Shown here piece after piece: positions 8,383 through 25,850 of a stretch of DNA of 64,000 nt. The DNA lies in the NCBI GenBank assembly GCA_963595255.1, contig CAVBHX010000003.1:20944-84943 (forward strand). Reading direction: 5' to 3'. Under the pieces are notes generated by a model. That model saw nothing but the letters and a program-made list of their open reading frames with translations. It was not told where the DNA came from and ran no database searches. Source of the stretch: a bacterium. Its GTDB lineage: Bacteria > Bacillota > Clostridia > Lachnospirales > Lachnospiraceae. Position numbers and translations under genes: made by a program. Position 1 is the stretch's first letter. The number at the start of each line of letters is the position of its first letter.

Positions 8383-8400
8383 CTTACAATTACTTTATTC

Positions 8401-9840: not shown

Positions 9841-9954
9841 GTTTCTCTTCTCCTTTTCAATTTTGGTGGAATCCTTATTCCACGTTATTTTTTTGCCGGG
9901 AGTATCATAGCCTTACAATCGTTTTTGTATGGTCAGTCTCTTTCGAACACATGA

Positions 9955-10195
9955 CACAAAAAACGCCGGGCCTTTCGACTCCCCGTAAAAGGGACCGAAA
10001 AGCTCGGCGGTACCACCCTAGTTAACTGCGACCCTTTCGCAGCTCTCTTCATTGGCCGTTAACGCCGGCTGACACGCTGCACTTTCATGCAGTGGCTCCA
10101 GGACCGGTTCCATGTGATGAACAGCAGATATCTCACACCATATGATATCCTCTCTGTGGCTGGATTCTCATGTACTAATTCCCTTCATTGCCATA
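9955..10195 (-). promoter_or_regulatory. T-box riboswitch leader of proS (Pro specifier likely)
   Basis: The minus strand shows an AGAGA box, a GGUGUGAGA distal-loop motif and GAACCGGUCCUGG containing the CCG/CCU Pro codons. The T-box core UAGGGUGGUACCGCCGAG is followed by a terminator ending in UUUUUU. Promoter TTGACA-17-TAAAAT lies at about 10256..10228. Confidence 0.85.
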
Positions 10196-10274
10196 AAAGC
10201 ATATTTAAAAATGTTGAATTGTCAATTATTTTAATCCATGAAATATGTTTTGTCAAGAAAGCACCTGATTATTT

Positions 10275-11102
10275 TCACACAGAAAGCACTTGATCATTTT
10301 CACACGGTCTTACTGACATATCAAAATTCAGCAATGTTACCGAAGCCACCCGGTCCACATACAATGCATAGATATCGCTGTCCTTTTCCAGGCTTTCCAT
10401 ATCCACAATCTGCTCGCTTTTCAACCGGTACGGCTGACCATAATCCCGTTTCTCCGGCTTCATAAAATAGAAATAATTCTGCCAGCTTAATACCGTTTTG
10501 CGTTCTGGATACGGAAATGGCAGTCCAGCCGGCACATTGATATTCCATGCATCTGCTCTCGCCGCCTGTTTCTCACCTGGATTACTTTTTCCGGGCATTC
10601 CTTCCTCCAGGACCTGACGGATATACCGCTCCAGGATGCTTTGCGCCGCACTCCAGTCCATCTCCCCGAAGTCTTCGGAATGCTGTCTGGAAAGATCCGC
10701 TTCGACAGATACGGCTATTCCCGGGATTCCATGACTGGACGCCTCAAAAAGCGCACCCAGCGTCCCGCTGCAAGTCAGACAGGTCCCAAGATTTTCACCG
10801 TAATTGATCCCGCTTACACAGAGATCCGGTTTCCTGTCCGCGAGTTCCAGCACACCATGCGCCACTGCACGTGCCGGACTTCCATGCACCGCATATGCCA
10901 GCATTCTTCCCGGCACTTTCTCTATGATCCCGTCATCCGGGCATATAGGAAAAGAGCGCCCCATCCCAGTCTGTTGGGTATGAGGCGCTGCAATTAACAC
11001 ATCTCCTGTCTTCGCAGCAACTTGCGCCGCCGCATATAAGCCCGGACTATGAATCCCATCATCATTTGTAACTAAAATGAGTGGTCTGTTCTTCATAATC
11101 AC
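10275..11102 (-). CDS. surE: 5'/3'-nucleotidase SurE
   Basis: 275 aa. N-terminal signature ILVTNDDGIHSPGL. Confidence 0.9.
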   Translation of the reverse strand: MIMKNRPLILVTNDDGIHSPGLYAAAQVAAKTGDVLIAAPHTQQTGMGRSFPICPDDGIIEKVPGRMLAYAVHGSPARAVAHGVLELADRKPDLCVSGINYGENLGTCLTCSGTLGALFEASSHGIPGIAVSVEADLSRQHSEDFGEMDWSAAQSILERYIRQVLEEGMPGKSNPGEKQAARADAWNINVPAGLPFPYPERKTVLSWQNYFYFMKPEKRDYGQPYRLKSEQIVDMESLEKDSDIYALYVDRVASVTLLNFDMSVRPCENDQVLSV

Positions 11103-11124
11103 CTATATCCTTCTGAATTCCATA

Positions 11125-12555
11125 CTATTCAAATAATTCGTATGTCTTCTTCAACACTTCATCTGTGTGTACAGTAATATCTTTATAGATTGGAATCATC
11201 TTCTTATACAGTTCTACATTTTCCGGATTTGGTACAAATGTATCCTGGATCTTAACCATTCCTTCTACTGCTTCTTCGAAGCTTCCATACACACCTGTTG
11301 CAACTGCCGCACAGATTGCAGAACCAAGTCCTGCTGCTCCGTTTACTACATTTCTTACTGCCGGAAGGTTGAATACATCAGCAAAGATCTGCATGAACAG
11401 GTCGCTGTTAGATCCACCGCCTGTGATGATGATCTTATCCAGAGTCACACCAACTTCATTGACCATGTCTTCTGTATGTCCCTTAATCGTCATTGCAACA
11501 GCTTCCAGAATAGAACGGTAAATGTGTCCTCTGGTATGTCTTCCGTCGAATCCGATCATGATACCTTTCTTATAGCGGGCATCTACAGGTGCCAGCCAGT
11601 CAAGAGCTGTCATCAGTCCGTCACTTCCTGCTGGAACTTTTTCAGCTTCCTCGCTCAGAAGTTCTTCTGCGGACATTCCTTTTTCTTTTGCCATCTGAAT
11701 GTAGCTGTCACCTAATACATCTCTGAACCAGCTTACTGTCCACATACCTCTGCGGATTCCGTTGCTGTCATAGAAATATTTATTCGGTACACAAGAGAAT
11801 TTCGGCCATGCATAAGAAGTGCCTTTTAAGTTCTCTTTTCCTTCCATCATAGCGGTTGTGTAGGTTCCAAGTGAGATGCATGCTGTCTTATCGCCCATAC
11901 ATCCGGTTCCGAGACCTTCAACGGCTTTATCGTTCGATGTTGCAACAACCGGAACTCCCTGTGGAAGACCTGTTGCCTTGGCAGCCTCTTCTGTTACATA
12001 TCCAAGTACATCTCCAGGCATTACCAGATCGAACAGCATCTCTCTTGGCATTCCTGTTGCCTTGTATGCTTCCGGATCATCTGACCACCGCCATTTATCT
12101 ACATCTACAGGCCATCCATATTCATAGTTGGCAACTGTATCTTTGCGTTCTCCGGTTAATCTGTGTGTGATATATCCGGAAGAAGCTACGATATATTTTA
12201 CATCTGGATTCACATGCTCATATGGCTGTGATACACGGATATCCATCCAGCTCAGTGCCGGCTGTGCAAGTGTTCCGTCTTCTTTCAGATATGCTCTGCA
12301 GCAACGGATCGTGCAAAGTCCGATTCCCAGGATATCCTTTGGATCTCCTTCGAATTTGTCCATACACTTTTTGGACGCTTTGCAGATTGCATCCCACCAG
12401 TCATCGTCCGGATGTTCTACATATCCCGGCTTTGGAAGATCATATGGGCGGAGCGGCTCTCTTGCCTCACATACAATATTTCCGACTGTATCAAAGATCG
12501 TGATCTTTGCGCTCTGTGATCCTTCATCAATACCCATCAAATATTTTTTACTCAT
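11125..12555 (-). CDS. FGGY-family carbohydrate/polyol kinase (substrate unknown)
   Basis: 476 aa. N-terminal YLMGIDEGSQSAK (actin-like ATPase phosphate-1 motif) and C-terminal GGGSNSDLFMQIFADVF, typical of FGGY kinases. Confidence 0.85.
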   Translation of the reverse strand: MSKKYLMGIDEGSQSAKITIFDTVGNIVCEAREPLRPYDLPKPGYVEHPDDDWWDAICKASKKCMDKFEGDPKDILGIGLCTIRCCRAYLKEDGTLAQPALSWMDIRVSQPYEHVNPDVKYIVASSGYITHRLTGERKDTVANYEYGWPVDVDKWRWSDDPEAYKATGMPREMLFDLVMPGDVLGYVTEEAAKATGLPQGVPVVATSNDKAVEGLGTGCMGDKTACISLGTYTTAMMEGKENLKGTSYAWPKFSCVPNKYFYDSNGIRRGMWTVSWFRDVLGDSYIQMAKEKGMSAEELLSEEAEKVPAGSDGLMTALDWLAPVDARYKKGIMIGFDGRHTRGHIYRSILEAVAMTIKGHTEDMVNEVGVTLDKIIITGGGSNSDLFMQIFADVFNLPAVRNVVNGAAGLGSAICAAVATGVYGSFEEAVEGMVKIQDTFVPNPENVELYKKMIPIYKDITVHTDEVLKKTYELFE

Positions 12556-12594
12556 TGTTATCTACTCCTGTCTTACTCTGAAGTTACTGTCTGA

Positions 12595-13383
12595 TTATCT
12601 TACCAGATATCCTCCGTCTACTACCAGCAATGTTCCGTTTACATAATCTGCTGCTTTACTTGCAAGGAATACCATTGCTCCCATAAGATCCTGTCTTTCT
12701 CCCCAACGGTCTGCCGGAATGTGCTCTTTGATCTTAACGTATTTCGGATCGTCTTCATTTCCACTTCCTGTTCCGGCTGTCATAGCTGTCTGGAAGTATC
12801 CAGGAGCGATACCATTTACCGTGATACCATATTTTCCAAGTTCATCTGCATATGCTTTTGTAAGTCCCATAAGACCAGCTTTCATAGCTGCGTATGCAGG
12901 AGATCCAAGTCCTCCAAGGAATGAGAACAGTGAGCAGATGTTAATGATTCTTCCGCTCTTCTGAGGGATCATGTATTTAGCAACTGCGTGGCTTAAGTCA
13001 AATGCGCCTGTCAGGTTGATTGCGATCATTGGATCCCATTCAGCTCTTCCGAAATCAAGAACATCAGCGATCTTGCAAATACCTGCACAGTTTACAAGGA
13101 TATCGATGCTTCCGTATGTCTCTACACACTTCTCAGCAACTTTGTCGCACATACCATCTTCTGTCAGGTCGCCCTGCATGAATGTATATTTCACTCCGCA
13201 GTCTTCGATTAATTTCTTTGTTGTTCCGTCGTCATCTACATAAGCAAATGTGAAGATGTTTGCTCCTGCTTTTGCAAGTGCCAGTGCAAATGCCTGTCCG
13301 AGTCCACTGTTTCCACCTGTAACAATTGCGTTTTTTCCCTTTAAAGAAAAGAAATCCATTGAAAAATCATTAATATTTAACAT
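12595..13383 (-). CDS. SDR family oxidoreductase (KduD / gluconate 5-dehydrogenase-like)
   Basis: 262 aa. TGGNSGLG cofactor motif, YAAMKAG (YxxxK) catalytic motif and KduD-like N-terminus FSLKGKNAIVTG. Confidence 0.88.
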   Translation of the reverse strand: MLNINDFSMDFFSLKGKNAIVTGGNSGLGQAFALALAKAGANIFTFAYVDDDGTTKKLIEDCGVKYTFMQGDLTEDGMCDKVAEKCVETYGSIDILVNCAGICKIADVLDFGRAEWDPMIAINLTGAFDLSHAVAKYMIPQKSGRIINICSLFSFLGGLGSPAYAAMKAGLMGLTKAYADELGKYGITVNGIAPGYFQTAMTAGTGSGNEDDPKYVKIKEHIPADRWGERQDLMGAMVFLASKAADYVNGTLLVVDGGYLVR

Positions 13384-13459
13384 TATTTTTTACCTCCATT
13401 TTGTCCCAACATTTGTTTTTGCTAAAACGAATTCCTTCATCTGCGCACAATGAAGAAAC

Positions 13460-13568
13460 AAAAAAGAGAGAGTCCCTTCCACCCACACTTTATGTAGATA
13501 AAAGTTACTCTCTCTTTCGCTCTTTTAGTAACTGTCTATATTGTAAATCCAACATCCAAATATGTCAA
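13460..13568 (-). promoter_or_regulatory. promoter plus conserved leader/attenuator L3 (upstream of SDR-kinase-surE)
   Basis: Minus strand: TTGACA(13568..13563)-17 nt-TACAAT(13545..13540). This is followed by CAGTTAC TAAAAGAG CGAA AGAGAGAGTAAC and a hairpin AAAGAGAGAGT...ACTCTCTCTTT plus a U-run (A-run 13460..13465 on the plus strand). Confidence 0.6.
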
Positions 13569-13602
13569 TATCGTGATAATACCAAAAGAACCCGCTTGTT
13601 TT

Positions 13603-13884
13603 TTATGTACTTTGCACAATTCTAAGTTCATTATTCAATACAGGTGTAAAACGTTTCGTCTGAAATTTGCTTGTAAATAATTCACATTTGCACAGGAACA
13701 GATAGAAAACATTCCTTCCGCTTCCATGCAATGTCTCAAAATTCCCCTGACCTTTTGCAATACACAGATCCGCTTCATCGATCAGATATCTCACTTCCGG
13801 ATTGATCTCATCGATCGGTGTTCCCGGTACATCTGTTCCATTCGGCATTACATTTACACTTTGTTCCTGCAGCATGCCAGGCAT
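13603..13884 (-). pseudogene. C-terminal remnant of a DUF89/ARMT1-type damage-control phosphatase
   Basis: The 93 aa ORF contains the C-terminal DUF89 motif KGQGNFETL. About 190 aa of the N-terminal domain are absent, and the upstream space is occupied by glpP (stop at 13921). Confidence 0.55.
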
Positions 13885-13920
13885 ACTGTATCCGCATTCA
13901 TCTTTTCACCTTCTTTATCT

Positions 13921-14499
13921 CTAACAATCCCACACTCTGCGGTTCGACGTTGCAACTGCAATTGCACCTGCTTTTAATGCACCCATTACATCGTCTTTAT
14001 CCTGTGTCAGACCACTTGCCACTACCGGTCTGTCAATCTTTTCTATCAGAAAACTCATAACCTTTGAAAGGCCTGCCGGAAGAAACTCTACAATGTCCGG
14101 ATTGCAGTTCTTGATATGTTTTTCAATATTCGCATACGTAAAACGGTCCATCAGATAAAATCTCTGGATCGTAAACAATCCGACGTCATTTGCCCGTTTG
14201 ATCATTGCCGGTTTCATGCTGATGATTCCATCGGCTTTTGTATATTTCTTCAGGAAATCCACACTGATCTCCTTTGAGGAGAGTCCGACGATCAGATCCA
14301 TATGTACGATCGCCATCTTTCCTGCTGCTTTTACTTTCTCTACAATCTCCGGAATGGTGCAGATATCTCCATAAACAATATATACAATCTCGCAGTCTGA
14401 TTCCGGAAGCGCCTCCAGCCATTCATCATTGATGATCTCCGGAATTACCGGACAGTTCTCTGTTGCTTCCATAAAAAAGTCCTTTGTCAAAGGTTCCAT
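13921..14499 (-). CDS. glpP: GlpP-family (glycerol-3-phosphate responsive type) RNA-binding antiterminator
   Basis: 192 aa. The pattern VHMDLIVGLS...ADGIISMKP..IKRA...GL.TIQRFYL.D......NI.......PD.VEFLPG matches the G3P antiterminator family. Confidence 0.75.
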   Translation of the reverse strand: MEPLTKDFFMEATENCPVIPEIINDEWLEALPESDCEIVYIVYGDICTIPEIVEKVKAAGKMAIVHMDLIVGLSSKEISVDFLKKYTKADGIISMKPAMIKRANDVGLFTIQRFYLMDRFTYANIEKHIKNCNPDIVEFLPAGLSKVMSFLIEKIDRPVVASGLTQDKDDVMGALKAGAIAVATSNRRVWDC

Positions 14500-14502
14500 C
14501 TT

Positions 14503-16104
14503 CTATTCCTCCTTCACAGGCAGACGCGGACTCTCTATAGGCCTTCCATTGCTGTCATAGTCTTCTTTATGCACATCATACTTCTGCGGATTCTTCGCAA
14601 TCTTCAACAGTCCTATGATCATCAAAATCATAATGAACATATTCGGGAATCCTCCCAGGTTCGATGCTGCTTTAATACCATCAATTCCTGCAAAGCTGAT
14701 CAGTATCCATGTTACAACGCCAACTGTGATTCCCCATACGATCTTTAGCCATGGCGCTGCTTCCTGTTCTTCCTGTGTAATACCATATGTGCAAAGTCCT
14801 GCCATCGCATTCGTGTTTGAATCCGAAGCTGTAACAAATGAAATAAATACAATAAACAAGTAAAACGGAATAACAATTACTGCTAATGGAAGCTGTTCAA
14901 ATACTTTATATACAACCGCTTCTGTCCCTTTGTTCAATAGAGTATCATACATTCCGACTCCGTTCAACTCATAATAAATTGTTGCGGTAGAGAACAGTCC
15001 CATCCAGATTGTACTGAAGATGGCCGGAATAACGAAGTTGCATTTGATTGCATCTTTAATCGTATATCCTTTTAAGATCTTTCCAAGGAACACTGCCGTT
15101 ACCGGTGTCCATGAAAGCCAGTTACACCAATAGAAGATCGGCCAGCTTCTTGCCCATGTATCTCCGAATACATCACCGGACATCAGACTCATCGGAAGGA
15201 AGTCCCTGACATATGCACCCCATGATTCTACTGACATATTTAACATATAAGCTGTCGGTCCGAATACCAGAAGAAATGCAAATAATACCATGTATACTTT
15301 TGCATTGATAGATGAAAGAAGTTTGATTCCTTTCATAACACCGGATACACTGGAAATAATGAATGTTGTAACGATTACAACAATAACAATTCCCCACATA
15401 ACCGCACCGCTCTTTATACCGGTAAGATTCTGGATTCCGCCTGCAATTGTGAGTGTTCCGGTTCCAAGTGACGCTGACATACCTGCCACCAGTGTCACCA
15501 GACAAATCACATCGACGACTCCATTATACTTCTTGATTCTGTTACCCAATGCAGGTACCAGTGCAGATCCCATAGAATAGGACTGTTTCATATTATAGAA
15601 TACAAATGCAAATACCAGTGTTGCTACTGTATAGATTGCATATGGTGACCATGTCCATTCCAGGAACATCGTCTTCATAGCAAATATCGCTGCTCCAGGA
15701 GAAGCTGCCTTTACACCTTCAGATGCCGGTGGTGCGTACAGATGATATAACGGCTCTGCACACGCCCAGAACAAGATTCCGGCTGCGATCGTTGTACAAA
15801 GTGTGATCCATACCAGATCCAGGAATTTCATCTTTGGATGTGCTTTGCTGCCGCCAATTCTTACTTTTCCAAGCGGCGAAAAATATACAATAATTACGGT
15901 AATCACACACATAACCGTAACAATATTAAACGCCCATGAAAAATTCTTTAAAATCCAGCCTGTAACCGCATTCAAACCCGCCAGGAATGCATCTCCGTTC
16001 ACAAGGCTGACTACTACCATTGCGATCAATAATAACCACGGTGGGAAGAATACTGCTTTTCTTAATTTTAACTCTACATTCTTTTCTTTTACTGCTGCTG
16101 TCAT
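14503..16104 (-). CDS. BCCT family transporter (betaine/carnitine/choline-type)
   Basis: 533 aa with about 12 TM helices. FSPLGKVRIGG...AAGILFWACAEPLYHLYAPP and WPIFYWCNWLSWTPVTAVFLGKI resemble the BCCT signature regions. Confidence 0.85.
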   Translation of the reverse strand: MTAAVKEKNVELKLRKAVFFPPWLLLIAMVVVSLVNGDAFLAGLNAVTGWILKNFSWAFNIVTVMCVITVIIVYFSPLGKVRIGGSKAHPKMKFLDLVWITLCTTIAAGILFWACAEPLYHLYAPPASEGVKAASPGAAIFAMKTMFLEWTWSPYAIYTVATLVFAFVFYNMKQSYSMGSALVPALGNRIKKYNGVVDVICLVTLVAGMSASLGTGTLTIAGGIQNLTGIKSGAVMWGIVIVVIVTTFIISSVSGVMKGIKLLSSINAKVYMVLFAFLLVFGPTAYMLNMSVESWGAYVRDFLPMSLMSGDVFGDTWARSWPIFYWCNWLSWTPVTAVFLGKILKGYTIKDAIKCNFVIPAIFSTIWMGLFSTATIYYELNGVGMYDTLLNKGTEAVVYKVFEQLPLAVIVIPFYLFIVFISFVTASDSNTNAMAGLCTYGITQEEQEAAPWLKIVWGITVGVVTWILISFAGIDGIKAASNLGGFPNMFIMILMIIGLLKIAKNPQKYDVHKEDYDSNGRPIESPRLPVKEE

Positions 16105-16625
16105 AACTTTTCTCCTCTCTCTATCGTTATGTGCACTATCTTGGAACCAACTTCTCTCAGTATCTGTTCCAGTTCCTGTTCCTCCTTTTCTTTCATGATT
16201 CTTTTCGGAATTGTGAATACTTCCCGGTTCACTCTTAATACATAAATGTTCCCGGAAATATATGCTTCCGTATTTTTATCCGTCATCTCAACGGATTGAT
16301 TCTTATCTCCGTACTGGATTTTATCTTTTTGTATCCTGACATTATAGCTTCCCTTTTCCCATGCAATCTTTTTTGCTCTCCGTTTCCTGCTGAATGCAGG
16401 TACATAGATGATATACAAAAGCAGCAGAACCATAACACCCAGTAACACGATCCAGAAGAATTGCTGTGTATCGCGCATATATGCAATCAATGCGCCCACA
16501 CCGATCAGACTGATCACGCCTACATTTATATCTCTGAACTTCCCCTCTTTTTTGTAATCCAGACACAAAAGTGCCTCCTCTATCTCAGCCCTGGTAAGTT
16601 GATATTGAAACTTCAGTGCTCTCAT
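16101..16625 (-). CDS. YcxB-like membrane protein
   Basis: 174 aa. Two central TM helices and a C-terminal bPH-like region. Start and stop overlap the flanking genes, consistent with translational coupling. Confidence 0.6.
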   Translation of the reverse strand: MRALKFQYQLTRAEIEEALLCLDYKKEGKFRDINVGVISLIGVGALIAYMRDTQQFFWIVLLGVMVLLLLYIIYVPAFSRKRRAKKIAWEKGSYNVRIQKDKIQYGDKNQSVEMTDKNTEAYISGNIYVLRVNREVFTIPKRIMKEKEEQELEQILREVGSKIVHITIERGEKL

Positions 16626-17614
16626 CTCCTCTCTTTTATGATCCTGATCAATTCCGGTACGATTTCGTACAGATCTCCGACTATCGGATAATGTGCGATC
16701 TCGAATATCCTCGCCTCCGGATCTTCATTGATCGCAATAATATTTTTTGTGTTCTTCATACCCGCCATGAACTGTACTGTTCCCGATACGCCGCAGGTAA
16801 TCATATAATCCGGACTCACGGTATTACCTGATAGGCCAATCTGTTCTTTCGGCAACATCCAACCTTTTTCGACAAGCGCGCGGCTGGATGCAAGCTTTCC
16901 GCCTAAAAGGCCTGCCAGTTCCCGTAACATTTCCAGATCTTCTTTTTTCTTCACACCGCGCCCGGCAACTACCAGTATCTTCTCTTCTGTAATCCCTTTT
17001 TCTGTTTTCTCTGCCTTCGACGATATGATTTCTATTCCTTTACTTTCTTTATCTATTTTTTTGTTTACATATTCTGTGACGTTCTGGTCATTCTTATCCA
17101 CCTTCTGCATAACTCCTGGTCTTACCGTTGCAAACTGTGGTCTGCCAAACTGTGTCACAATATCCGCCATAATATTTCCGCCAAATGCCGGTCTCGACTG
17201 GACAAGATTGCCTTCTTCATTGATTGCAAGTCCCGTACAATCCGCCGTAAGACCGGTCTGGAATCTGACTGCCAGTCCCGGTGCCAGCGATCTGCCTTCG
17301 TATGTGCCGCCTACCAGCACGATGGATGGCTTAAGTTCTTCTATGCATTCCGCCATAATCCGCGTATATAACGGTGATTCATATTCATCTTCTGATTCAT
17401 ACAGATATGCTTTTTCAACCGGATAGCCTTTCAACGCTTCCCGGATTCTATCCATATCTTTTCCGATTCCTGCCACATAGACCGGATCTTTTGACACTTC
17501 AGACAACCTGACCGCTTCCCCGATCAGTTCTTCACTTGCTGCATGAAGTTCTCCTTTATAGCATTCCAGATATACCAGGATTCCGGACCATTCTTTTTTA
17601 TCTGCTTCTATCAT
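16622..17614 (-). CDS. etfA: electron transfer flavoprotein alpha subunit (module 2)
   Basis: 330 aa. C-terminal FAD-binding region VVAGRGV...SRALVE.GW....QIG.SG..V.P.Y.I.CG.SG..QF..G. Confidence 0.9.
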   Translation of the reverse strand: MIEADKKEWSGILVYLECYKGELHAASEELIGEAVRLSEVSKDPVYVAGIGKDMDRIREALKGYPVEKAYLYESEDEYESPLYTRIMAECIEELKPSIVLVGGTYEGRSLAPGLAVRFQTGLTADCTGLAINEEGNLVQSRPAFGGNIMADIVTQFGRPQFATVRPGVMQKVDKNDQNVTEYVNKKIDKESKGIEIISSKAEKTEKGITEEKILVVAGRGVKKKEDLEMLRELAGLLGGKLASSRALVEKGWMLPKEQIGLSGNTVSPDYMITCGVSGTVQFMAGMKNTKNIIAINEDPEARIFEIAHYPIVGDLYEIVPELIRIIKERR

Positions 17615-18408
17615 CGTCCATCCTCCTTCAGTAATTCATTCAGAACTTCCGCAATATACCGCGCAGCCTCATTCTTTTCCATACACAAGAGTTCCTGTTT
17701 GCTGGTCCGCTCCGGAGGATAGATCTTCTTTACTCTTGTCGCAGATCCCTTCAGTCCATAATGTTCCGGATCCTGATCTTCCAGATCTCCCATGGAGATC
17801 CGATGGATTTCTTTTTTTCTTCCGCTGATCTTTAACTTAAGAGATGGCATTCTCGGCGGGAATCCGTCACGTTCTACGGACATAAGACACGGAAGTGTTA
17901 CTTTCGCCGTCACTGTTCTGTGTTCCATACAATACTCAACCCCTAACGTATGCTCATCCAGAACATCTATTCCGGTCACCCAGTTCAGTCTCGGTATCTG
18001 CATCCATTCCGCAATCGCACCGCTTACCTGAGCGGTATCGCCATCTGTTGTCTGTCTTCCGCATAAAATCATATCATAATCATCTGCCGACTGTATCGCC
18101 TGCTTCAGTGTATAAGACGTTGCAAGCACGTCCGCTCCGGCAAATGCTTTGTCGCAGATCAGATATCCTTCATCTGCTCCCATTGCAAATGCTTCACGAA
18201 GGACCATCTCTGCTTTATCGGGTCCCATTGTAAATACATGCACTTCCCCGCCACATTGTTCTCTGATACGGAGTGCCGCTTCCAATGCCGCAAGATCATA
18301 TACATTTACAATTGCCTGCAGACCCGAACGATTCATTACACCGGTCTTTTTATCCATATCTCCCTGCGAAGTTGCCGGGACCTGTTTCATACATACCGCA
18401 ATTTTCAT
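17611..18408 (-). CDS. etfB: electron transfer flavoprotein beta subunit (module 2)
   Basis: MKIAVCMKQVP start. The ATG at 18408 avoids overlap with the upstream stop at 18423, while the ORF track extends to 18489. Contains CGRQTTDGDTAQVSG. Confidence 0.9.
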   Translation of the reverse strand: MKIAVCMKQVPATSQGDMDKKTGVMNRSGLQAIVNVYDLAALEAALRIREQCGGEVHVFTMGPDKAEMVLREAFAMGADEGYLICDKAFAGADVLATSYTLKQAIQSADDYDMILCGRQTTDGDTAQVSGAIAEWMQIPRLNWVTGIDVLDEHTLGVEYCMEHRTVTAKVTLPCLMSVERDGFPPRMPSLKLKISGRKKEIHRISMGDLEDQDPEHYGLKGSATRVKKIYPPERTSKQELLCMEKNEAARYIAEVLNELLKEDGR

Positions 18409-18422
18409 ACACATTCTACTTC

Positions 18423-19847
18423 CTATCCCAGTATATTTCCCTGATTCAGTCTGCCTTCTATATCCAGGTGCGCCTTTAACTTTCTGCACAATTCCTGATA
18501 ATCTTCCGGAACGCAGGCACCTAATATCTGACGTTTTAATTTGCCGACACCATGTTCACCTAACAGGACTCCGTGTAAATCTCTGGTACGTTCCGCCCAG
18601 CTTCTGATCAGCCCGATGCCCTTTTCATATGCTTCATAATCCTCCGGCAGGATATTCACATGCAGATGGTTCTCCAGTGCATGTCCGAAGATAGAGCCTT
18701 CCAGACCAGCCTGGCTCATGTCTTTTTCATACTGTTCCAGCAGCTCTTTAAATGTCTGCTCACCGATCACCATATCTGTTCCCAGTTTCGTGATCCGGTC
18801 ATCTTTTCTTCTCTGTTCTTCGATATAAAGGTTGGCCGTCTCAGCCGCCGCATGACGGAATGCATGAAGCTTCTCCACTTCTGTCTCTCCGGACAGTGCC
18901 CATGCCTGATCCGGATCGCTTCCACACTCCATGGCAGCTTCCATCAGGCTTTCGGCGATTACCTCGATCCCTTCTTCACTTCCCTGAAGTTCCGTGTAAA
19001 CCAGTGCCTGAATATTCTCTTCAATATCCGGCAGTTCCTTGATCTTCGTCATCGTCTCTTTTCTGGCTTCGATCAGATTCATACTTCTGCGGTCCATATA
19101 TTCCACTGCCGCAATCTTTGCATCTTCCGCTTCCGGCAACTCACTGCGAAGCATATCTATAAATCCTGCAGCCCCTTCTTTCTCTTCAAAGAAGAAGACG
19201 ATTCCCCATACCGCTTCTGGTTTTGGGATCACTTTCAATGTAATTCTTGTAATGATTCCCGTAATTCCTTCTTTTCCAAGAACCATATCCAGCGCAGCAA
19301 TCGACTCTCCCGGCAGGATCTCTTCTTCCTGCCCTCTGGAAATCTCTCTTACATTGCCTGCACCATCGATCAGACGGATACTTTCTATATAATTCTCCGT
19401 CTCCCCGTACAGCATATGGCTGATTCCCTGCGCACCCGAAGCTGCGATTCCACCGATTGATGCCGATGTCTCTGTCGGATCTGGCGGCCAGAACAGATGC
19501 TCTTTCCGGAATCTTGCTGCAATTTCTTTTCTAAGCTCCATAAGATTGATTCCCGGCTCTACCGTGATCCGTCCGGTTCCGTCTGGTTCTGTCGAATGTT
19601 CAATTACTTTATTCATATGAGACAGATTTAAAATATGACCTCCCATCGGAACCCCGGCTCCTGTAATTCCTGTCTTTGCTCCCTGGATCGTCACCGGTAC
19701 CTGCTCTTCTTTCATCTGTTCTAATATAGCAAGTATCTCTTCTTCTGATTCTGGGAACGAAATGCTGTCCGCATGGCCTTTATATTTCGATTCGTCTATC
19801 AGATAGTCTTCATATTTTTCTTCCATCTGATAAATGGTTGCTGCCAT
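18423..19847 (-). CDS. FAD-linked oxidase (GlcD / D-lactate dehydrogenase-like), module 2
   Basis: 474 aa. VAO/PCMH-type FAD-binding domain (VTIQGAKTGITGAGVP) and C-terminal GEHGVGK motif. Confidence 0.85.
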   Translation of the reverse strand: MAATIYQMEEKYEDYLIDESKYKGHADSISFPESEEEILAILEQMKEEQVPVTIQGAKTGITGAGVPMGGHILNLSHMNKVIEHSTEPDGTGRITVEPGINLMELRKEIAARFRKEHLFWPPDPTETSASIGGIAASGAQGISHMLYGETENYIESIRLIDGAGNVREISRGQEEEILPGESIAALDMVLGKEGITGIITRITLKVIPKPEAVWGIVFFFEEKEGAAGFIDMLRSELPEAEDAKIAAVEYMDRRSMNLIEARKETMTKIKELPDIEENIQALVYTELQGSEEGIEVIAESLMEAAMECGSDPDQAWALSGETEVEKLHAFRHAAAETANLYIEEQRRKDDRITKLGTDMVIGEQTFKELLEQYEKDMSQAGLEGSIFGHALENHLHVNILPEDYEAYEKGIGLIRSWAERTRDLHGVLLGEHGVGKLKRQILGACVPEDYQELCRKLKAHLDIEGRLNQGNILG

Positions 19848-19880
19848 ATCTTCCGCCTCCTTACGTATAATAATTTTTTA

Positions 19881-20834
19881 TTACGATTTTTCTAATATTT
19901 TATTCAGCGCCTCAATGAACGGTTTGAAATCTTCTACGATCACCACATCAGCGTTCTTCATGATCGGCGCATGTTCATCGGTATTAACCGCTGCTATGAA
20001 TTTACTCTTTTCAATCCCCGCATAGAATGCTGCCGCACCGGACACCCCTGCCGTGATACAGATCTCCGGATTCGTCATGGCTCCGGATACCCCGATCAGG
20101 TGAGTCATCGGAAGCCATGCATTCATTGCCGCCGGGCGGCTGACACCAACCTGACCGCCGGTCTTATCAGCAAGTTCCTGTAAAATCTCAATATTTTCCT
20201 TTTTCGAGATTCCCCGTCCTGCCGCGATCAGTACTTTGACCTCTTCCAGCCCTTCTTCCTGATCCTCCGGTTCAAAACTTCGTTCTATAATATAAGCATC
20301 TGCTTCATTTTCGTCACACTTATGTACTTCTATAATCTGCATCTGTCCCGGATGAGGCTCTGTCTTCGTAAGTCCTTTTGCCATACTGATACAGTACGGA
20401 CCTTTTTTCATCCGGAATATTGCCTCCATATGATTGGAATAAACCATCTTTCCGACTTTTATCCCATCTTCTGTTCCATTCTCTATAACAATGCTGCTGA
20501 CCGCTGTAAGAGAGCTGCCGTTAAGTCTTGCCGCCAGTCTGACTGCCAGTTCTTCTCCTGCATAATCACTTCCGAAAATATATACAGCTTCCGGTTCTGC
20601 AAGCTCTTCCAATTCCTTCAAAACATTCTCCGGTACATATTCTTCTGCTGTCAGCACACTTACATTCTCTGTGAGCTTTCCTTCCATCTGTTCTGCATAT
20701 GCTTCATTTTTGCAATACAGATAAGTAACTCCTTCTTCTGCTTCTGACAGATACGCTTCTTTGAACGCTTCCATCTCCTGCATTAACTTCTGACAGTTCT
20801 GCAAGTATCCATTCAATACAAAATGATATCTCAT
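19881..20834 (-). CDS. etfA: electron transfer flavoprotein alpha subunit-like (module 1)
   Basis: 317 aa. C-terminal FAD domain LIAAGRGI...SRPAAMNAWLPMTHLIGVSG....PE.CITAGVSGAAAF.AG. Confidence 0.8.
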   Translation of the reverse strand: MRYHFVLNGYLQNCQKLMQEMEAFKEAYLSEAEEGVTYLYCKNEAYAEQMEGKLTENVSVLTAEEYVPENVLKELEELAEPEAVYIFGSDYAGEELAVRLAARLNGSSLTAVSSIVIENGTEDGIKVGKMVYSNHMEAIFRMKKGPYCISMAKGLTKTEPHPGQMQIIEVHKCDENEADAYIIERSFEPEDQEEGLEEVKVLIAAGRGISKKENIEILQELADKTGGQVGVSRPAAMNAWLPMTHLIGVSGAMTNPEICITAGVSGAAAFYAGIEKSKFIAAVNTDEHAPIMKNADVVIVEDFKPFIEALNKILEKS

Positions 20835-21634
20835 AATTCTTCCAGCCTGCCTTTCAGATAATTTTCGTAAAATTCTGCTGCCTTCTCTTCCGGCGTCTCA
20901 CCTTCGATCACCTGTGCCGCCCGGCTGTGTTCTACCACGTGCAGATCTATAAGTTCTACTCCGGAATCTTCTGTTTTCTCAGGAAATTCTGTTACGTATT
21001 CGATCGGCCGTTTTCCGCGGCTCATCTTATCTTTTAATGTCGGAACTCTTAAGTATGCACACGGTGCATTTCCCACAGCAAGCACACACGGTGTCTTCAC
21101 CGTCCAGATGCGCTTTCCGTCTGCCGTCTCACTGATAACTTTCAGATGTTCTTCATCCACCGGCTCCATTCCGACCACCTGCGTAATGCACGGCCATCCG
21201 AGCTTTTCCGCCGTCAGATATGGTGTCTTCCGGTTATTTCCATCCGAGCTTCCGGTTCCCATGACGATCACATCCTGCATCTGTTCTTTTTTTACATAAG
21301 ATGCAACTATATCAGCAATCTCTTCCGGCACAAATACCTTATCTTCTTCTGATTCTGCCCTGACTGCATGTTCAAAACCAAGTGCGTATAACGTCTTCAG
21401 GAAGTTTTCATGTTTCTTCTTTCCAACCGTCAACGCATTCAGTTCATATACGACGCCAAAGCCTTCTGATAAATCAGAAAGCTTCAACATCATCTCCAGG
21501 GCACCTTCGTCATAACAATTCCACAATAATTTTACATACCCAGTATCTATATGTAACTGTTCATCTGGTGTCCAGTCTTCGTCTGCCACCAGATCATAAT
21601 CTGATACAACTTTAAAACACCCTAATATTTTCAT
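20831..21634 (-). CDS. etfB: electron transfer flavoprotein beta subunit-like, divergent (module 1)
   Basis: 267 aa with EtfB-like length and layout. The DGDTAQV region is replaced by MGTGSSDGNNRKTPYL. Coupled by 4-nt overlap to the downstream etfA-like gene. Confidence 0.7.
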   Translation of the reverse strand: MKILGCFKVVSDYDLVADEDWTPDEQLHIDTGYVKLLWNCYDEGALEMMLKLSDLSEGFGVVYELNALTVGKKKHENFLKTLYALGFEHAVRAESEEDKVFVPEEIADIVASYVKKEQMQDVIVMGTGSSDGNNRKTPYLTAEKLGWPCITQVVGMEPVDEEHLKVISETADGKRIWTVKTPCVLAVGNAPCAYLRVPTLKDKMSRGKRPIEYVTEFPEKTEDSGVELIDLHVVEHSRAAQVIEGETPEEKAAEFYENYLKGRLEEL

Positions 21635-21640
21635 AAGCCA

Positions 21641-23098
21641 TTATTTTCTCAGAGGAATCAGTGTTCCCATGTTCATAATACCGTTTGGATCAAATGCCTG
21701 CTTTAATGTTTTCAGCATGTAGTATGATGAGCCATACTCCTGTGGAGCATATTTTGCTCTTGCTTTTCCAAGTCCGTGATGATGTACGATAGATCCGCCG
21801 TATTTAATAACCTGTTCGCAGATGATCTGGTTGATTCTGTCATGGTATTTGTTGATCTCTTCTTCCGGAGCACAGTCAACTACATTGTAGTAGTATACGA
21901 AATACATATTCGTTCCGTTGATGTAGCTGTGTGAAGAATGTCCACCCATCAATGTCATATCAGGTACTTCTGCAAGGATTCTGTCGCAGGCTGTCTTGTA
22001 GATCTCATAAATGTTATCCCAGCTTCCGGAAACTTCTGTTGTGATACCGATATTATGTGTAGCTTTGATTTCTTCTCTTTCCTGAGCGATCTGTTCTGGT
22101 CCCCAGTTCAGTCCGCTGTACCATTTCTCGATGAGTTTTGGATCTACTTCTTCAAGTTCAGGATGTTTGTACATCATTTCCTTGATTCCTTCTTCGATTG
22201 CTTTTGTAATGTTAGCCGGTCCTTCTGCCATCCAGATCAGGATTGCTTTGTCTTCTTCCAGCCATGAGCTGAAGTGCTGCTGAGCATCCGGTGCATCATA
22301 AAGTCTTGCGAATGATGGTCTGTATCCAGCAACCATAACTTCACGTAAGCAGTCAAATCCAAGTTTCATCTGGTCATTGTCCAGTTTGAATCCGATGTAA
22401 CGGTTGTTTTCCGGCTGCCATTTGAAGAGTTTTAATGTAACTTCTGTGATGAAGCAGAGAGCTCCTTCATTTCCACAGATGATATGTCTGATGTCCGGTC
22501 CAGCTGCACGTCTTGGTACATTTTTGATTCTGCAGATCTTTCCGTTCGGGAATACTGCTTCCATACCAACGATCATGTCTTCGATTCCACCATATAATGT
22601 AGAGAACTGTCCGATACTTCTTGTTGCTACCAGTCCACCGATCTGTGCAAGTGGTTTTGACTGTGGAGAGTGTCCTGTTGTCAGTCCTCTTTCTCTTAAC
22701 ATATCGTCAAGATCCTGAAGAGGTACACCACACTGGCATGTTACCTGCATGTTATACTCATCTACTTTTAATACTTTGTTCATCATAGATCCGTCGATGA
22801 CTACAGAATCTTTTAATGCTGTCTCAAGTCCGCCTTCAATTGCAGAATGTCCTGTTCTTGGTACAACGTTGATCTCGTTATCATTTGCAAATGTAAGTAC
22901 TTCTGATACCTGCTCCGGTGTCTTTACATATACAACTGCTGCCGGGATTGGCTGTGTGTATACTTCACATACCTGTTCATATTTTCTATATCTGTCAATA
23001 CTGCTGTCTTTTAATATCTGTTCATCTGTAATTACCTGTTCTTCACCAAGAATCTTTACTAATCCTTCTACGATCTGTTCTCTTGAAATAATTGCCAT
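21641..23098 (-). CDS. FAD-linked oxidase, alkyl-DHAP-synthase (AGPS)-like, module 1
   Basis: 485 aa. TGHSPQSKPLAQIGGLVATRSIGQFSTLYGGIEDMIVGMEAVFPNG closely parallels the AGPS block TGHEPDS...GGW.STRASG....YGNIED. Confidence 0.8.
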   Translation of the reverse strand: MAIISREQIVEGLVKILGEEQVITDEQILKDSSIDRYRKYEQVCEVYTQPIPAAVVYVKTPEQVSEVLTFANDNEINVVPRTGHSAIEGGLETALKDSVVIDGSMMNKVLKVDEYNMQVTCQCGVPLQDLDDMLRERGLTTGHSPQSKPLAQIGGLVATRSIGQFSTLYGGIEDMIVGMEAVFPNGKICRIKNVPRRAAGPDIRHIICGNEGALCFITEVTLKLFKWQPENNRYIGFKLDNDQMKLGFDCLREVMVAGYRPSFARLYDAPDAQQHFSSWLEEDKAILIWMAEGPANITKAIEEGIKEMMYKHPELEEVDPKLIEKWYSGLNWGPEQIAQEREEIKATHNIGITTEVSGSWDNIYEIYKTACDRILAEVPDMTLMGGHSSHSYINGTNMYFVYYYNVVDCAPEEEINKYHDRINQIICEQVIKYGGSIVHHHGLGKARAKYAPQEYGSSYYMLKTLKQAFDPNGIMNMGTLIPLRK

Positions 23099-23228
23099 TT
23101 TATAAAACTCCTTTCAAACTTCCTATTAATATAGTTGTTCTTCTTCCTTTTTGACCGATGAGCCTCTATAAAACCAGATCTGTGCGCACCTGTTCTGATT
23201 TTATAGAAGTTATTGCATGCTTTGGCAT

Positions 23229-23343
23229 AAAAAAAGAGAAAAGAAACCTGTCAGGAGACATACTCTGTCTCTCAGGTTACTTTTCTCTTAAAATCTCTTC
23301 GGTAACTGGTTTTAGTATAATGCCTTGGGTATCGGATTGTCAA
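23229..23343 (-). promoter_or_regulatory. promoter plus conserved leader/attenuator L1 (upstream of the oxidase/ETF/BCCT/glpP operon)
   Basis: Minus strand: TTGACA(23343..23338)-18 nt-TATACT(23319..23314). This is followed by CAGTTAC CGAAGAG ATTTTA AGAGAAAAGTAAC CTGAGAGAC-loop-GTCTCCTGACAGGTTTCTTTTCTCT and then UUUUUUU. Confidence 0.65.
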
Positions 23344-23418
23344 TTGTGCAGTATTGATGTTTTTGTTACCCCGTTTTTGTGCGTTTTGTACAGTTTATTA
23401 TTTTTTTCTTATTTTTAA

Positions 23419-23508
23419 TTGACTTTTTACACAAAAGACGGTATAGTCGAATCAGTTACAAGAGTATGAGAGAAGTAACGCCACCGGGCATTACTTTTCT
23501 CTTTTTTT
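23419..23508 (+). promoter_or_regulatory. promoter plus conserved leader/attenuator L2 (upstream of the MFS transporter)
   Basis: TTGACT(23419..23424)-17 nt-TATAGT(23442..23447), followed by CAGTTAC AAGAG TAT GAGAGAAGTAACGCC-ACCG-GGCATTACTTTTCTC and then TTTTTTT. Confidence 0.65.
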
Positions 23509-23656
23509 GTTATATGACATTCTATATAATATGATGACTGCAGCATCATATTGTGTTACATCTGATTGTTATACGAATTGTATGAACAAAAAGATTATAA
23601 CAAAAGATACGCACGTTATAATGTATGTCATAATGCTATTTATATGGAGGGAAAAC

Positions 23657-24892
23657 ATGAACAAATCTTTTATTAAAAAATACGGCACGCTGTTACTTCT
23701 GGCGGCCGGAGCCGGAATCATCTTCCAGCTTCCTTATATTCGTGAGACATTTTATGTACCTATTCAGAATGCGATGAATCTGACAGATGCTCAGATGGGT
23801 ATGTTATCATCCGGATATGCAACTATGGCAACTTTTTCTTACTTTGTCGGTGGTATCGTCGCAGATAAATTCTCTGCACGTAAGCTGCTTGCATTTTCAT
23901 TCATTGCAACCGGTATCCTCGGATTATGGTTCTCAACCTTCCCGGGATATAACATCAGCCGCCTGATCTTCGTATTAATGGGTGTATCTACTGTTATTAC
24001 ATACTGGTCAGCTTGTATCAAAGCAACACGTTTACTTGGTGACAGCAATGAACAGGGACGTCTGTTCGGTCTGCAGGAAGGTTTACGTGGAGTTATCAAT
24101 GCCGCAGTTGTATTCGTAATGTCTGCTGCATTCGCTCATTATACAAATGAAGTTGCCGGTGCTGCAGCTGCGATCCGTATCTGTGCAGGTACACTGATCG
24201 TTCTTGGTATCCTTCACTACATCGTAATCGAAGATACCAAATCAGAAAAGACAGAATCTATCGCTACTGTAACAAAGGGTATGTTCAAATGCTTACTGAT
24301 CCCTAGAGTATGGGTTCTGATCGGAATCATCTTTACAGCTTACAGTGTATATGGTCTGATCGGTTATGTTACTACATTTGCACAGCGCTTCTTCGGAATG
24401 ACTGCTGCAACAGCTGCTACCCTTGGTGGTGTACGTTACCTGCTTCAGGGCGCAGGCGGAATCGTTGGTGGATTCCTTGCTGATAAATTCTCACGTGCGA
24501 AAGTTATCGCTGTAGGATGTGTCGGACTTGCTGTTTCTTTCGCAGCTTATGTATTCATTCCTGGAAATGCATCTGCACTCGGTGTTGTTATTGCTAACTT
24601 CTTCATCGGACTGGTATTCATCTATGCCGTAAGAAGTCAGTACTTCGCAATCCAGGATGATGCAGGTATTCCGATTGAATTAAGTGGACGTGTATCAGGT
24701 ATCACATCTGCAATCGGATATCTTCCAGACGTATTCATGTACACATTAGTTGGAAGCTGGATGGACAGCTACGGAAGAACAGGATTCAACATGACATGGA
24801 TCTACGCTGCAGTTGCTGCTGTACTTTGTATCGTAATGGTAGTTCTGCTGAACGTGATCATCAAAAAGAATCCAAAGTCCATTGAAGAATAG
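23657..24892 (+). CDS. MFS transporter
   Basis: 411 aa from the ATG at 23657 (GGAGGG RBS), with 12 predicted TM helices. The track ORF starts at 23507 inside the leader terminator, which is unlikely. Confidence 0.85.
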   Translation: MNKSFIKKYGTLLLLAAGAGIIFQLPYIRETFYVPIQNAMNLTDAQMGMLSSGYATMATFSYFVGGIVADKFSARKLLAFSFIATGILGLWFSTFPGYNISRLIFVLMGVSTVITYWSACIKATRLLGDSNEQGRLFGLQEGLRGVINAAVVFVMSAAFAHYTNEVAGAAAAIRICAGTLIVLGILHYIVIEDTKSEKTESIATVTKGMFKCLLIPRVWVLIGIIFTAYSVYGLIGYVTTFAQRFFGMTAATAATLGGVRYLLQGAGGIVGGFLADKFSRAKVIAVGCVGLAVSFAAYVFIPGNASALGVVIANFFIGLVFIYAVRSQYFAIQDDAGIPIELSGRVSGITSAIGYLPDVFMYTLVGSWMDSYGRTGFNMTWIYAAVAAVLCIVMVVLLNVIIKKNPKSIEE

Positions 24893-25085
24893 ACAAGTGT
24901 CCATATCATTTTCATAAATCTCTTAAGGCGGGTGCCGGTTACGGCATCCGTCTTATATTGTATTTTTAATTCTATTTCCGATCGTTTCCCTGTCATATGA
25001 CGATTCTTTTCTTCTTCGCTTCTTGCAGTTTTTTCCCCGCCATGATTTAATAAGTATAATATTTATTATAACGAAGGAGACTTAT

Positions 25086-25850
25086 ATGGCTACTTTAAAT
25101 ATATTATACGAAGACCCACACATCCTGGTCTGTGTCAAACCACACGGCATCGCAACCCAGAGCAAAAGCATCCGTTACCCGGACATGGTCAGCCTGATCA
25201 AGAATCATCTGGCGAAATCCAGTGGTTCCAGGAACCCTGGCTCAGCTGAGCCTTACCTTGCCGTCATCCACAGACTCGACCAGCCTGTTGCCGGGATCCT
25301 TGTCTTTGCCAAGACACCGGCTGCTGCGAAGGATCTGAATAAGCAGTTACAGAATCAGGGATTTGGGAAATATTACCGTGCCCTTGTCACCAATCCTCCT
25401 TCAGAGGAAGAAGGAACACTCGAGGATTATATGGTCAAAGATGCACGGACGAACACTTCCAGAATCTGTTCTGTGAAGGAAAATGGAGCAAAGATTGCAC
25501 GGCTGCATTATAATACAGTTCCTGCTGATAACCGGCTGTTTACGATACCATCCGGCTCCTCGCACAGCAGCATTTCCGGCACCGGTCTGCAATCATCTGA
25601 TCCCACTGAAAAAAACACTGCTTTTCACGGAACAGAACTGGAGATCCATCTGGACACCGGGCGCCATCATCAGATTCGTGTACAGCTTGCATCTATCGGC
25701 TGTCCAATCGTCGGAGATACAAAATATAACCCGGAACTTGCCGGCACAAAGGGCTGGCAGACAATCCGGCTGTGTGCTTATAAGCTGGATTTTAAACATC
25801 CGGTTACACATAAAGCTATGCATTTTCAGTTAGAAGCTGATCCTGTATAA
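25086..25850 (+). CDS. RluA-family pseudouridine synthase
   Basis: HRLDQPVAGILVFAKT catalytic motif and C-terminal TGRHHQIRVQLA. The start at 25086 has a GGAG RBS. Confidence 0.85.
   Translation: MATLNILYEDPHILVCVKPHGIATQSKSIRYPDMVSLIKNHLAKSSGSRNPGSAEPYLAVIHRLDQPVAGILVFAKTPAAAKDLNKQLQNQGFGKYYRALVTNPPSEEEGTLEDYMVKDARTNTSRICSVKENGAKIARLHYNTVPADNRLFTIPSGSSHSSISGTGLQSSDPTEKNTAFHGTELEIHLDTGRHHQIRVQLASIGCPIVGDTKYNPELAGTKGWQTIRLCAYKLDFKHPVTHKAMHFQLEADPV

Follow-up and report, generated by a model that had tools for sequence, protein, structure and literature searches.

Three leader RNAs of common design and a GlpP-family protein in a catabolic gene cluster of gut Lachnospiraceae

GlpP and related antitermination systems

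Since the 1990s, GlpP has counted as a textbook example of an antiterminator. In Bacillus subtilis this PF04309 regulator is encoded together with its targets, and several operons of the genome (glpD, glpFK and glpTQ) share a leader that lies behind a sigma-A promoter and has an intrinsic terminator. At its base, the 5′ arm of this terminator meets a purine-rich element in which a short helix closes off two (A/G)GAG(A) boxes. It is established for B. subtilis that GlpP binds the glpD leader and that there is a dependence on glycerol-3-phosphate (Glatz et al. 1996, 1998, as cited in PMC9604022 and PMC10573289). In the searchable literature the RNA target of GlpP is described only for B. subtilis, as "an inverted repeat" or "binding site", and the GlpP regulon was expressly excluded from one comparative study (PMC3750489). 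The subject of the present analysis is a stretch of 64,000 nucleotides from a Lachnospiraceae genome (contig CAVBHX010000003.1, positions 20,944 to 84,943; hereafter the window), in which a GlpP-family protein is encoded in a catabolic gene cluster and similar leaders (L1, L2 and L3) precede three sets of cluster genes. These leaders are most probably protein-dependent antitermination switches that would be read by the GlpP-family protein, a reading in which binding, ligand and start site are predicted from sequence.

The co-encoded regulator, the promoters, the terminators and the helix with its two boxes recur in the window, again at several operons, and the leaders also share the 5′ end AGUUA (AGUUAAU there, AGUUAC here). 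The differences are in the targets, which are not glpF, glpK, glpD, glpT or glpQ; in the protein, which is about 30-35% identical to Bacillus and Listeria GlpP and carries T95M and G162S; in the leaders, whose 5′ terminus doubles as the 5′ arm of the helix and whose loop has 15-22 nt versus about 14; and in the position of glpP, which lies here inside one of the controlled operons. By most criteria that can be applied to sequence, the system appears to belong with GlpP/glp-leader antitermination in B. subtilis, but it departs from it in regulon content. The mechanism is of a known kind, and what is new is the regulon and a family-wide definition of the RNA target. The initial annotation of this DNA had considered both motif and regulon uncharacterised. 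The regulon is indeed new, whereas the motif is the general target design of the GlpP family, though undescribed as a family and absent from Rfam.

Other antitermination systems are alike in part. HutP, acting at the hut terminator of B. subtilis, is a ligand-activated protein that binds repeated purine triplets (NAG) and stops the terminator from forming (PMC2425495); however, its sites are two sets of three UAG/NAG repeats that no helix encloses, it responds to histidine and Mg2+, and no HutP-family protein is found here. In the BglG/LicT/SacY systems with their ribonucleic antiterminator (RAT), as in the ANTAR systems (EutV, AmiR, NasR), the terminator 5′ arm overlaps with a weak antiterminator hairpin, which is stabilised by the protein. 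The RAT is an imperfect palindrome of about 29 nt and the ANTAR targets are two hexaloop hairpins, both unlike a helix with a double-GAG loop, and these readings were rejected, as no cluster protein has a CAT-PRD or ANTAR domain.

Anatomy and folding of the three leaders

The promoters of L3 (TTGACA-17-TACAAT, 13540..13568, minus strand) and L1 (TTGACA-18-TATACT, 23314..23343, minus strand) match the sigma-A consensus at 11/12 positions, and that of L2 (TTGACT-17-TATAGT, 23419..23447, plus strand), which diverges from the L1 promoter, at 10/12. A consensus scan of 9800..25200 returned 34 promoter-like sites, three at 11/12 and four at 10/12; the leader promoters account for two of the former and one of the latter, and the remaining 11/12 site is the promoter of a T-box. 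CAGTTAC starts 5-6 nt past each -10 box, at 13534 (L3), 23308 (L1) and 23453 (L2). All three leaders then have the same order of blocks, namely (C)AGUUAC, two (A)AGAG boxes, GUAAC (13508..13504 in L3, 23280..23276 in L1, 23475..23479 in L2) and a strong terminator with 6-7 U, the U-runs ending at 13460 (L3, six U), 23229 (L1, seven U) and 23508 (L2, seven U). The three promoters claimed in the initial annotation were thus recovered to the base, and so were the ordered CAGTTAC, AAGAG and GTAAC blocks with their U-run terminators.

In L3 (minus strand) the sequence that comes 5 nt after TACAAT is CAGTTACTAAAAGAGCGAAAGAGAGAGTAACT, and a long hairpin and the U-run (13465..13460) follow. The putative antiterminator hairpin P1 of this leader (13503..13533) pairs AGUUACU (13533..13527) with AGUAACU (13509..13503) around a loop of 17 nt, AAAAGAGCGAAAGAGAG, which contains both AGAG boxes. 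It scores 40.7 bits with R1, a covariance model of the 5′ hairpin, and is worth -3.7 kcal/mol on its own. The intrinsic terminator of L3 (13456..13522; -34.6 kcal/mol, z -6.8) has its 5′ arm at 13522..13507, covering both AGAG boxes and the G-U of GUAAC. In L1 (minus strand), CAGTTACCGAAGAGATTTTAAGAGAAAAGTAAC lies downstream of TATACT, followed by a hairpin and the U-run (23235..23229); P1 (23276..23306; 35.6 bits, -1.3 kcal/mol) pairs GUUAC (23306..23302) with GUAAC around the 21-nt loop CGAAGAGAUUUUAAGAGAAAA, and the terminator (23229..23289; -27.0 kcal/mol, z -4.3) has a 5′ arm that extends from the second AAGAG box through GUAAC. In L2 (plus strand), CAGTTACAAGAGTATGAGAGAAGTAAC lies downstream of TATAGT and is likewise followed by a hairpin and the U-run (23502..23508). 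Its P1 (23455..23479; 31.3 bits, -2.6 kcal/mol) pairs GUUAC with GUAAC around the 15-nt loop AAGAGUAUGAGAGAA, and its terminator (23468..23508; -22.5 kcal/mol, z -5.6) has the 5′ arm GAGAGAAGUAA.

Each of the three leader terminators folds better than 200 of 200 shuffles, and a strict composite pattern of the leader had 0.00 expected matches in shuffled sequence. In the 64-kb window the R1 model matched only the three leaders. A generic descriptor, which asks for two GAG boxes 2-9 nt apart, the second of them within a terminator 5′ arm, together with a U-run and a flanking helix, returned exactly L3, L1 and L2 from the same 64 kb, with helices of 7, 5 and 5 bp; for helices of 5 bp or more, 30 dinucleotide shuffles give an expectation of 0.13 such sites. 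A simple terminator scan picked up none of the three leader terminators, because their stems are composite, and a site search found no cre/CcpA-like sites at the leaders. No Rfam family matched the window leaders at gathering score, and nothing above chance was found at E up to 10; the sole match at gathering score was a T-box at 9987-10197, which is not one of the leaders.

In all three leaders the terminator 5′ arm takes in the second AGAG box together with GUAAC, wholly or in part, and P1 and the terminator are therefore mutually exclusive: when P1 was imposed on the fold, the terminator was lost. Folding thus bears out the earlier proposal that a GTTAC/GTAAC helix would exclude the terminator. 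Since P1 alone (-1.3 to -3.7 kcal/mol) is weak against the terminators (-22.5 to -34.6 kcal/mol), termination would be the default state, and a factor would have to clamp P1. More specifically, transcription would start at about the A or G of CAGUUAC, and by default the nascent RNA would fold into the strong intrinsic terminator and end at the U-run. In the presence of its effector, GlpP would bind the 5′-terminal hairpin, in which GUUAC and GUAAC enclose a purine loop of 15-21 nt with two (A)AGAG boxes; the clamped hairpin would sequester the terminator 5′ arm, and RNA polymerase would read through into the SDR-FGGY-SurE genes, the FAD-oxidase/Etf-BCCT-glpP operon or the MFS transporter. Induction would be self-reinforcing (positive feedback), because glpP is within the L1 operon.

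Conservation, pairing and rival explanations

Relatives were searched for with an alignment of close-relative GlpPs, an alignment of Lachnospiraceae, Listeria and Thermotoga sequences being too divergent. The window belongs to a Dorea species; its GlpP is 99% identical to that of a Dorea metagenome-assembled genome (MAG), and relatives at 61-99% identity occur in about 25 Lachnospiraceae and allied genomes, including Dorea, Extibacter muris, Faecalicatena contorta, Blautia, Mediterraneibacter, Schaedlerella, Enterocloster hominis and an Anaerovoracaceae MAG. Of the 24 loci whose GlpP reaches 61% identity, 23 have SDR/FGGY, FAD-oxidase/Etf or BCCT genes, most of them the full set plus the MFS transporter, and the one exception (L032) has hardly any sequence downstream of glpP. 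Where GlpP identity is 44% or less, canonical glycerol genes are found instead. Gene order is often shuffled in the former group, and the leaders are kept before the same genes in rearranged loci too.

With R1, 2-3 leaders per locus were found in nearly all loci with GlpP at 61% or more, and all matches at E < 0.01 are in sense orientation upstream of cluster genes. Automatic assignment placed 24 before the SDR gene, 18 before the first FAD oxidase gene, 2 before BCCT and 8 before MFS; 16 were left unassigned, most of which are in the MFS-leader position by inspection, which raises the MFS count to about 21. The leaders are always accompanied by a GlpP (PF04309) orthologue of at least 61% identity (about 25 genomes). 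The initial annotation had regarded the three leaders as one design that marks a regulon and had proposed a covariance-model scan for co-occurrence with glpP homologues; the same leaders before SDR-FGGY, FAD-oxidase/Etf and MFS/BCCT genes in about 25 genomes agree with the former, and the scan showed strict co-occurrence among relatives. The length of the P1 loop ranges over 15-22 nt between leaders, with no change in the arms or the two AGAG boxes.

The same design is found at canonical GlpP targets. An unrelated architecture of the B. subtilis glp leaders had been named as a possible weakness of the inference, but the glpD 5′ untranslated region (PMC9604022 supplement) has both the helix and the two GAG boxes, reading AGUUAAUAAGAACGGUC-CUGAGAUGAGGAGA-GACCACAGC..., where GACC opens the terminator 5′ arm. 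In a Bacillaceae glpP-glpF-glpK-glpD locus, AAGUUAAUAGAUGUG-GCGGAGACUUGGAGAAU-CAC... precedes glpF and AAGUUAAUAUUAUGGU-CGGAGAAACGGAGAA-ACCAC... precedes glpD. In a Clostridiales locus, a GlpP 44% identical to the window protein is followed by a DAO/BFD glycerol-3-phosphate dehydrogenase; the leader of this locus (UUUUACC-GAAAGAGUAUGAGAGCAAAA-GGUAAAA plus terminator) has a loop core, AAGAGUAUGAGAG, identical to that of L2. Such an element lies within about 350 nt of glpP in 43 of 84 canonical GlpP loci, of which 80 come from metagenomes, against an expectation of about 0.3 from the shuffle rate. A short helix around two GAG boxes, overlapping the terminator 5′ arm, is therefore common to the window leaders and to the leaders of canonical glycerol genes that occur with distant GlpPs, about 40 clostridial loci included. 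This gives a compact definition of the GlpP RNA target, a weak hairpin that presents two GAG boxes at the terminator foot. The canonical glp leaders likewise had no Rfam match at gathering score, and no glp genes were found near the Listeria glpP locus. The anatomy and conservation of the leaders, the mutual exclusivity of their structures, the co-occurrence with GlpP and the design in common with canonical glp leaders are all observed, and GlpP is the only RNA-binding regulator seen to track this RNA design across all gene contexts. The strict co-occurrence and the shared design at canonical glycerol genes support the earlier view that the GlpP homologue reads the three leaders.

The 5′ ends of the leaders are also alike across distant taxa (AGUUAAU in Bacillaceae, (C)AGUUAC in Lachnospiraceae and UCGUUAC in a Clostridiales MAG). 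The likeness is seen in the B. subtilis glpD 5′ untranslated region, in L044 (10600-10640 and 13545-13580), in L036 (6390-6400) and in the window leaders, and it persists where the segment is outside the helix. This shared 5′ end may be a second recognition element or a determinant of 5′-end stability; the latter is considered because GlpP is reported to stabilise glpD mRNA. In addition, one canonical clostridial GlpP leader (L036, 6369-6463, plus strand) has a weak match to the Rfam family rli52 (RF01480), below threshold at 24 bits against a gathering score of 70. The consensus of RF01480 contains AUGUUACCA, a further 17 nt and then a terminator-like hairpin. RF01480 does not match the window leaders. 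As a lead only, rli52 might be the Listeria version of a GlpP leader.

How far the pairing itself is conserved differs between the wider family and the clade. Across GlpP-family leaders there are more than 20 different helix sequences, and those of canonical leaders include CCUG/CAGG, ACCG/CGGU, GCCG/CGGC, CGCU/AGCG, CGCA/UGCG, GUUUC/GAAAC, UACCUU/AGGGUA and UGUGC/GCGCA. A helix of at least 5 bp is present in 49% of leaders versus 17% with a shuffled 5′ flank, and one of at least 7 bp in 22% versus 2.3%. An alignment of 55 distinct leaders of both classes showed double-sided changes in all five helix pairs; it was held by artificial constant anchors, which served the pair count only and were needed because MAFFT slid unanchored short leaders against each other. 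A covariance model built on the anchored canonical alignment (R2) did not recover real leaders and is uninformative, because the anchors dominated it, and the generic descriptor with its shuffle control was used instead. A stop-to-stop "coding-like" filter was dropped, as it removed true leaders. Within the Lachnospiraceae clade, covariation is scarce because the arms are almost invariant. Compensatory variants are AGAAC...GTTCT in an MFS leader, AATTACTT...AAGTAATT in L037 and AGCCA...TGGTT in Enterocloster hominis, while the Anaerovoracaceae MAG, with UGUUACC...GGUAAUA, retains the GUUAC core and adds only a G-U wobble. The earlier expectation of covariation in the GTTAC/GTAAC helix is thus borne out extensively across the wider GlpP family, but within the clade by few variants.

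Several points weigh against antitermination by a GlpP-bound helix as proposed here. The 51 distinct sequences of the clade have nearly invariant GUUAC/GUAAC arms, with one compensatory change and two G-U pairs, and it could be sequence rather than pairing that is under selection there. In several canonical subgroups the helix has only 3-4 bp. The 87% of cells that are paired in the anchored alignment (versus 43% in shuffles and 31-47% with the partner slid) is an inflated value, since the helix positions were picked by a best-helix search, and the shuffled-flank control is fairer. In five loci (L008-L010, L025 and L026) the FAD-oxidase/Etf/BCCT operon has no leader. Finally, the start site, the terminated 3′ ends, the binding and the ligand are all predictions for this organism.

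In one rival explanation GlpP reads the leaders but the GUUAC/GUAAC helix is non-functional, the protein instead binding the single-stranded (A)GAG boxes, perhaps with the conserved 5′ AGUUA, and occluding the terminator 5′ arm in a HutP-like manner. Besides the near-invariant arms of the clade and the 3-4 bp helices of many canonical leaders, this explanation would account for the conserved 5′ AAGUUAAU of Bacillaceae, which lies outside the helix, and for relatives in which the terminator 3′ arm pairs with the first box and not the second, both boxes still being conserved. It is nevertheless unlikely, given that box-flanking helices are enriched over shuffled flanks at both length thresholds, that the family has so many helix sequences and that compensatory variants exist within the clade itself. 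A different reader, be it another RNA-binding factor or a trans-acting RNA, with the GlpP linkage a neighbourhood effect, is very unlikely. GlpP binding to these leaders is a prediction, and the cluster does encode conserved proteins without a family (the 174-amino-acid open reading frame (ORF) described below and a 255-aa ORF in L008-type loci), but the RNA design follows GlpP into contexts without those proteins (glpFK and glpD of Bacillaceae, glycerol-3-phosphate dehydrogenase of Clostridia), and binding of GlpP to the glpD leader is known from B. subtilis.

Explanations that need no protein, or no RNA, fare worse still. A promoter-proximal terminator with an alternative upstream helix does resemble the expression platform of a riboswitch, and the element might on that ground be taken for a protein-independent metabolite riboswitch or a simple constitutive attenuator. 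However, its conserved part is one helix of 5-7 bp and a low-complexity purine loop of variable length rather than a multi-helix aptamer, the folding energy of the hairpin is just -1 to -4 kcal/mol, there is no Rfam match, and the co-occurrence with GlpP is strict, all of which makes this highly improbable. As for DNA, the perfect inverted repeat GTTAC-N15-22-GTAAC lies at about +1 to +35, where repressors typically bind, and could in principle be the operator of a transcription factor just downstream of the promoter. Against this, the distance between the arms differs (15 to 22 bp) both within one genome and between species, the element has a single orientation relative to the gene and overlaps a terminator in every case, the cluster has no conserved DNA-binding regulator, and the arm sequences at canonical loci change yet stay complementary. 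Variation in loop length and strand specificity fit an RNA hairpin and not a dimeric DNA operator, an idea to which next to no weight can be given.

Some loci of relatives depart from the arrangement in the window. In the five loci with the leaderless FAD-oxidase/Etf/BCCT operon (e.g. L009, 8990-9986), glpP is co-transcribed from a leaderless promoter with the conserved 255-aa protein, which has no Pfam match; the FAD-oxidase/Etf/BCCT operon is divergent, and the SDR-FGGY and MFS leaders are retained. Enterocloster hominis (L035) has two more divergent leaders, at 15491 (minus strand) and 15679 (plus strand), about 5 kb from glpP, with the arms AGCCA/UGGUU and UAGGUACU/GGUAUUUA. One of them is upstream of an MFS gene, which suggests that the regulon can reach beyond the core cluster.

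Genes under the leaders and the probable effector

Gene identities were assigned with Pfam and NCBIfam. The L1 operon (14503..23098, minus strand) encodes an AGPS-like FAD oxidase, EtfB, EtfA, an LctD-like FAD oxidase, a further EtfB and EtfA, a 174-aa protein and a BCCT transporter. Its last intact gene is glpP (13921..14499, minus strand), which starts 3 nt past the end of the BCCT gene and encodes 192 aa that match PF04309 (G3P_antiterm) with 194 bits over the full-length domain. The L3 operon (10275..13383, minus strand) consists of genes for a KduD-like SDR (12595..13383), an FGGY kinase (11125..12555) and a SurE-family phosphatase (10275..11102). The MFS transporter controlled by L2 was listed as an ORF at 23507..24892 (plus strand) that starts at a TTG within the U-run; its true start is probably about 50 codons further downstream, because relatives measure 401-412 aa. 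Between glpP and L3 is a remnant of an ARMT1-like (DUF89) damage-control phosphatase gene (13603..13884, minus strand), of which 93 aa of the C-terminal part are left. Since the gene is intact at the same position in most relatives (293-323 aa, with a full length of about 295-300 aa), including Dorea MAGs with 98-99% GlpP identity, it has decayed recently in this strain. The gene calls of the initial annotation were right in these searches, except that the 174-aa ORF, named YcxB there, has no Pfam or NCBIfam match, and that the ARMT1-like remnant was missing from its list.

The same scan agreed that glpK, glpF and glpD are absent from the locus, and found no MIP channel, GlpK equivalog, DAO-type glycerol-3-phosphate dehydrogenase, GlpT or GlpQ among the cluster proteins; the glpF, glpK, glpD, glpT and glpQ content of the known regulon is not that of this cluster. 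The FGGY kinase is nearest to LsrK and glycerol kinases and scores below every NCBIfam equivalog cutoff (XylB 176 bits, cutoff 380; GlpK 110 bits, cutoff 590), and the score of the MFS transporter on GlpT is 19 bits. The two paralogous FAD oxidases are of different kinds, and each is followed by its own EtfB/EtfA pair. Among solved structures the first (21641-23098, minus strand) matches alkyl-dihydroxyacetone-phosphate synthase best (153 bits), ahead of glycolate oxidase and LctD, and the second (18423-19847, minus strand) is similar to LctD of the lactate dehydrogenase/Etf complex (122 bits). An AGPS-like enzyme beside the homologue of a glycerol-3-phosphate sensor hints at a substrate derived from dihydroxyacetone phosphate or glycerol. 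The combination of a BCCT importer, a kinase and FAD oxidases suggests a glycerol-like or C3-phosphate compound with a quaternary amine.

The GlpP of the window, whose relatives in the PDB are 3KTS (Listeria GlpP) and 1VKF, belongs to a subfamily that keeps the residues conserved family-wide but differs from canonical GlpPs at a few positions. T95 is conserved in all 235 canonical GlpPs and G162 (AGGL loop) in at least 90% of them, whereas at least 90% of 120 subfamily members have M at position 95 and S at position 162 (AGGL to ASGL). Given these changes the effector is probably new, and by analogy with GlpK, glycerol-3-phosphate and GlpP it is probably a phosphorylated small molecule made by the FGGY kinase of the cluster. 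A more far-reaching proposal joins these elements and is offered tentatively, as a possibility that we would not yet call probable: the GlpP subfamily would sense the phosphorylated product of the orphan FGGY kinase and not glycerol-3-phosphate, the regulon would be an undescribed catabolic route of gut Lachnospiraceae for a glycerol-like or C3 quaternary amine, and with the hairpin an RNA recognition element would for the first time be defined for the GlpP family as a whole. In this scheme BCCT would import the substrate, and the SDR, the kinase and the AGPS-like flavoenzyme with Etf would process it; the substrate could be, for instance, a glyceryl ether or ester head group derived from betaine or choline lipids.

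The GlpP family has probably been recruited, with a new effector specificity, to this conserved uncharacterised catabolic cluster, which is present in Lachnospiraceae that are common in the human and mouse gut (Dorea, Extibacter, Faecalicatena, Blautia, Mediterraneibacter and Enterocloster). The leaders offer a handle for finding the substrate of this cluster, and a protein/RNA pair of this kind could provide a small portable switch for synthetic biology in anaerobes.

Two further arrangements concern the genes of the cluster and their neighbours. In a MAG (L037) two copies of the AGPS-like FAD oxidase, both 86% identical to the window protein, flank glpP at 8392-9840 and 10888-12336, each with its own leader. 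In the window the T-box leader (RF00230, 110 bits, minus strand) lies directly downstream of the SurE gene, has its own promoter (TTGACA-17-TAAAAT, 10256..10228) and precedes the gene for prolyl-tRNA synthetase (8401-9840).

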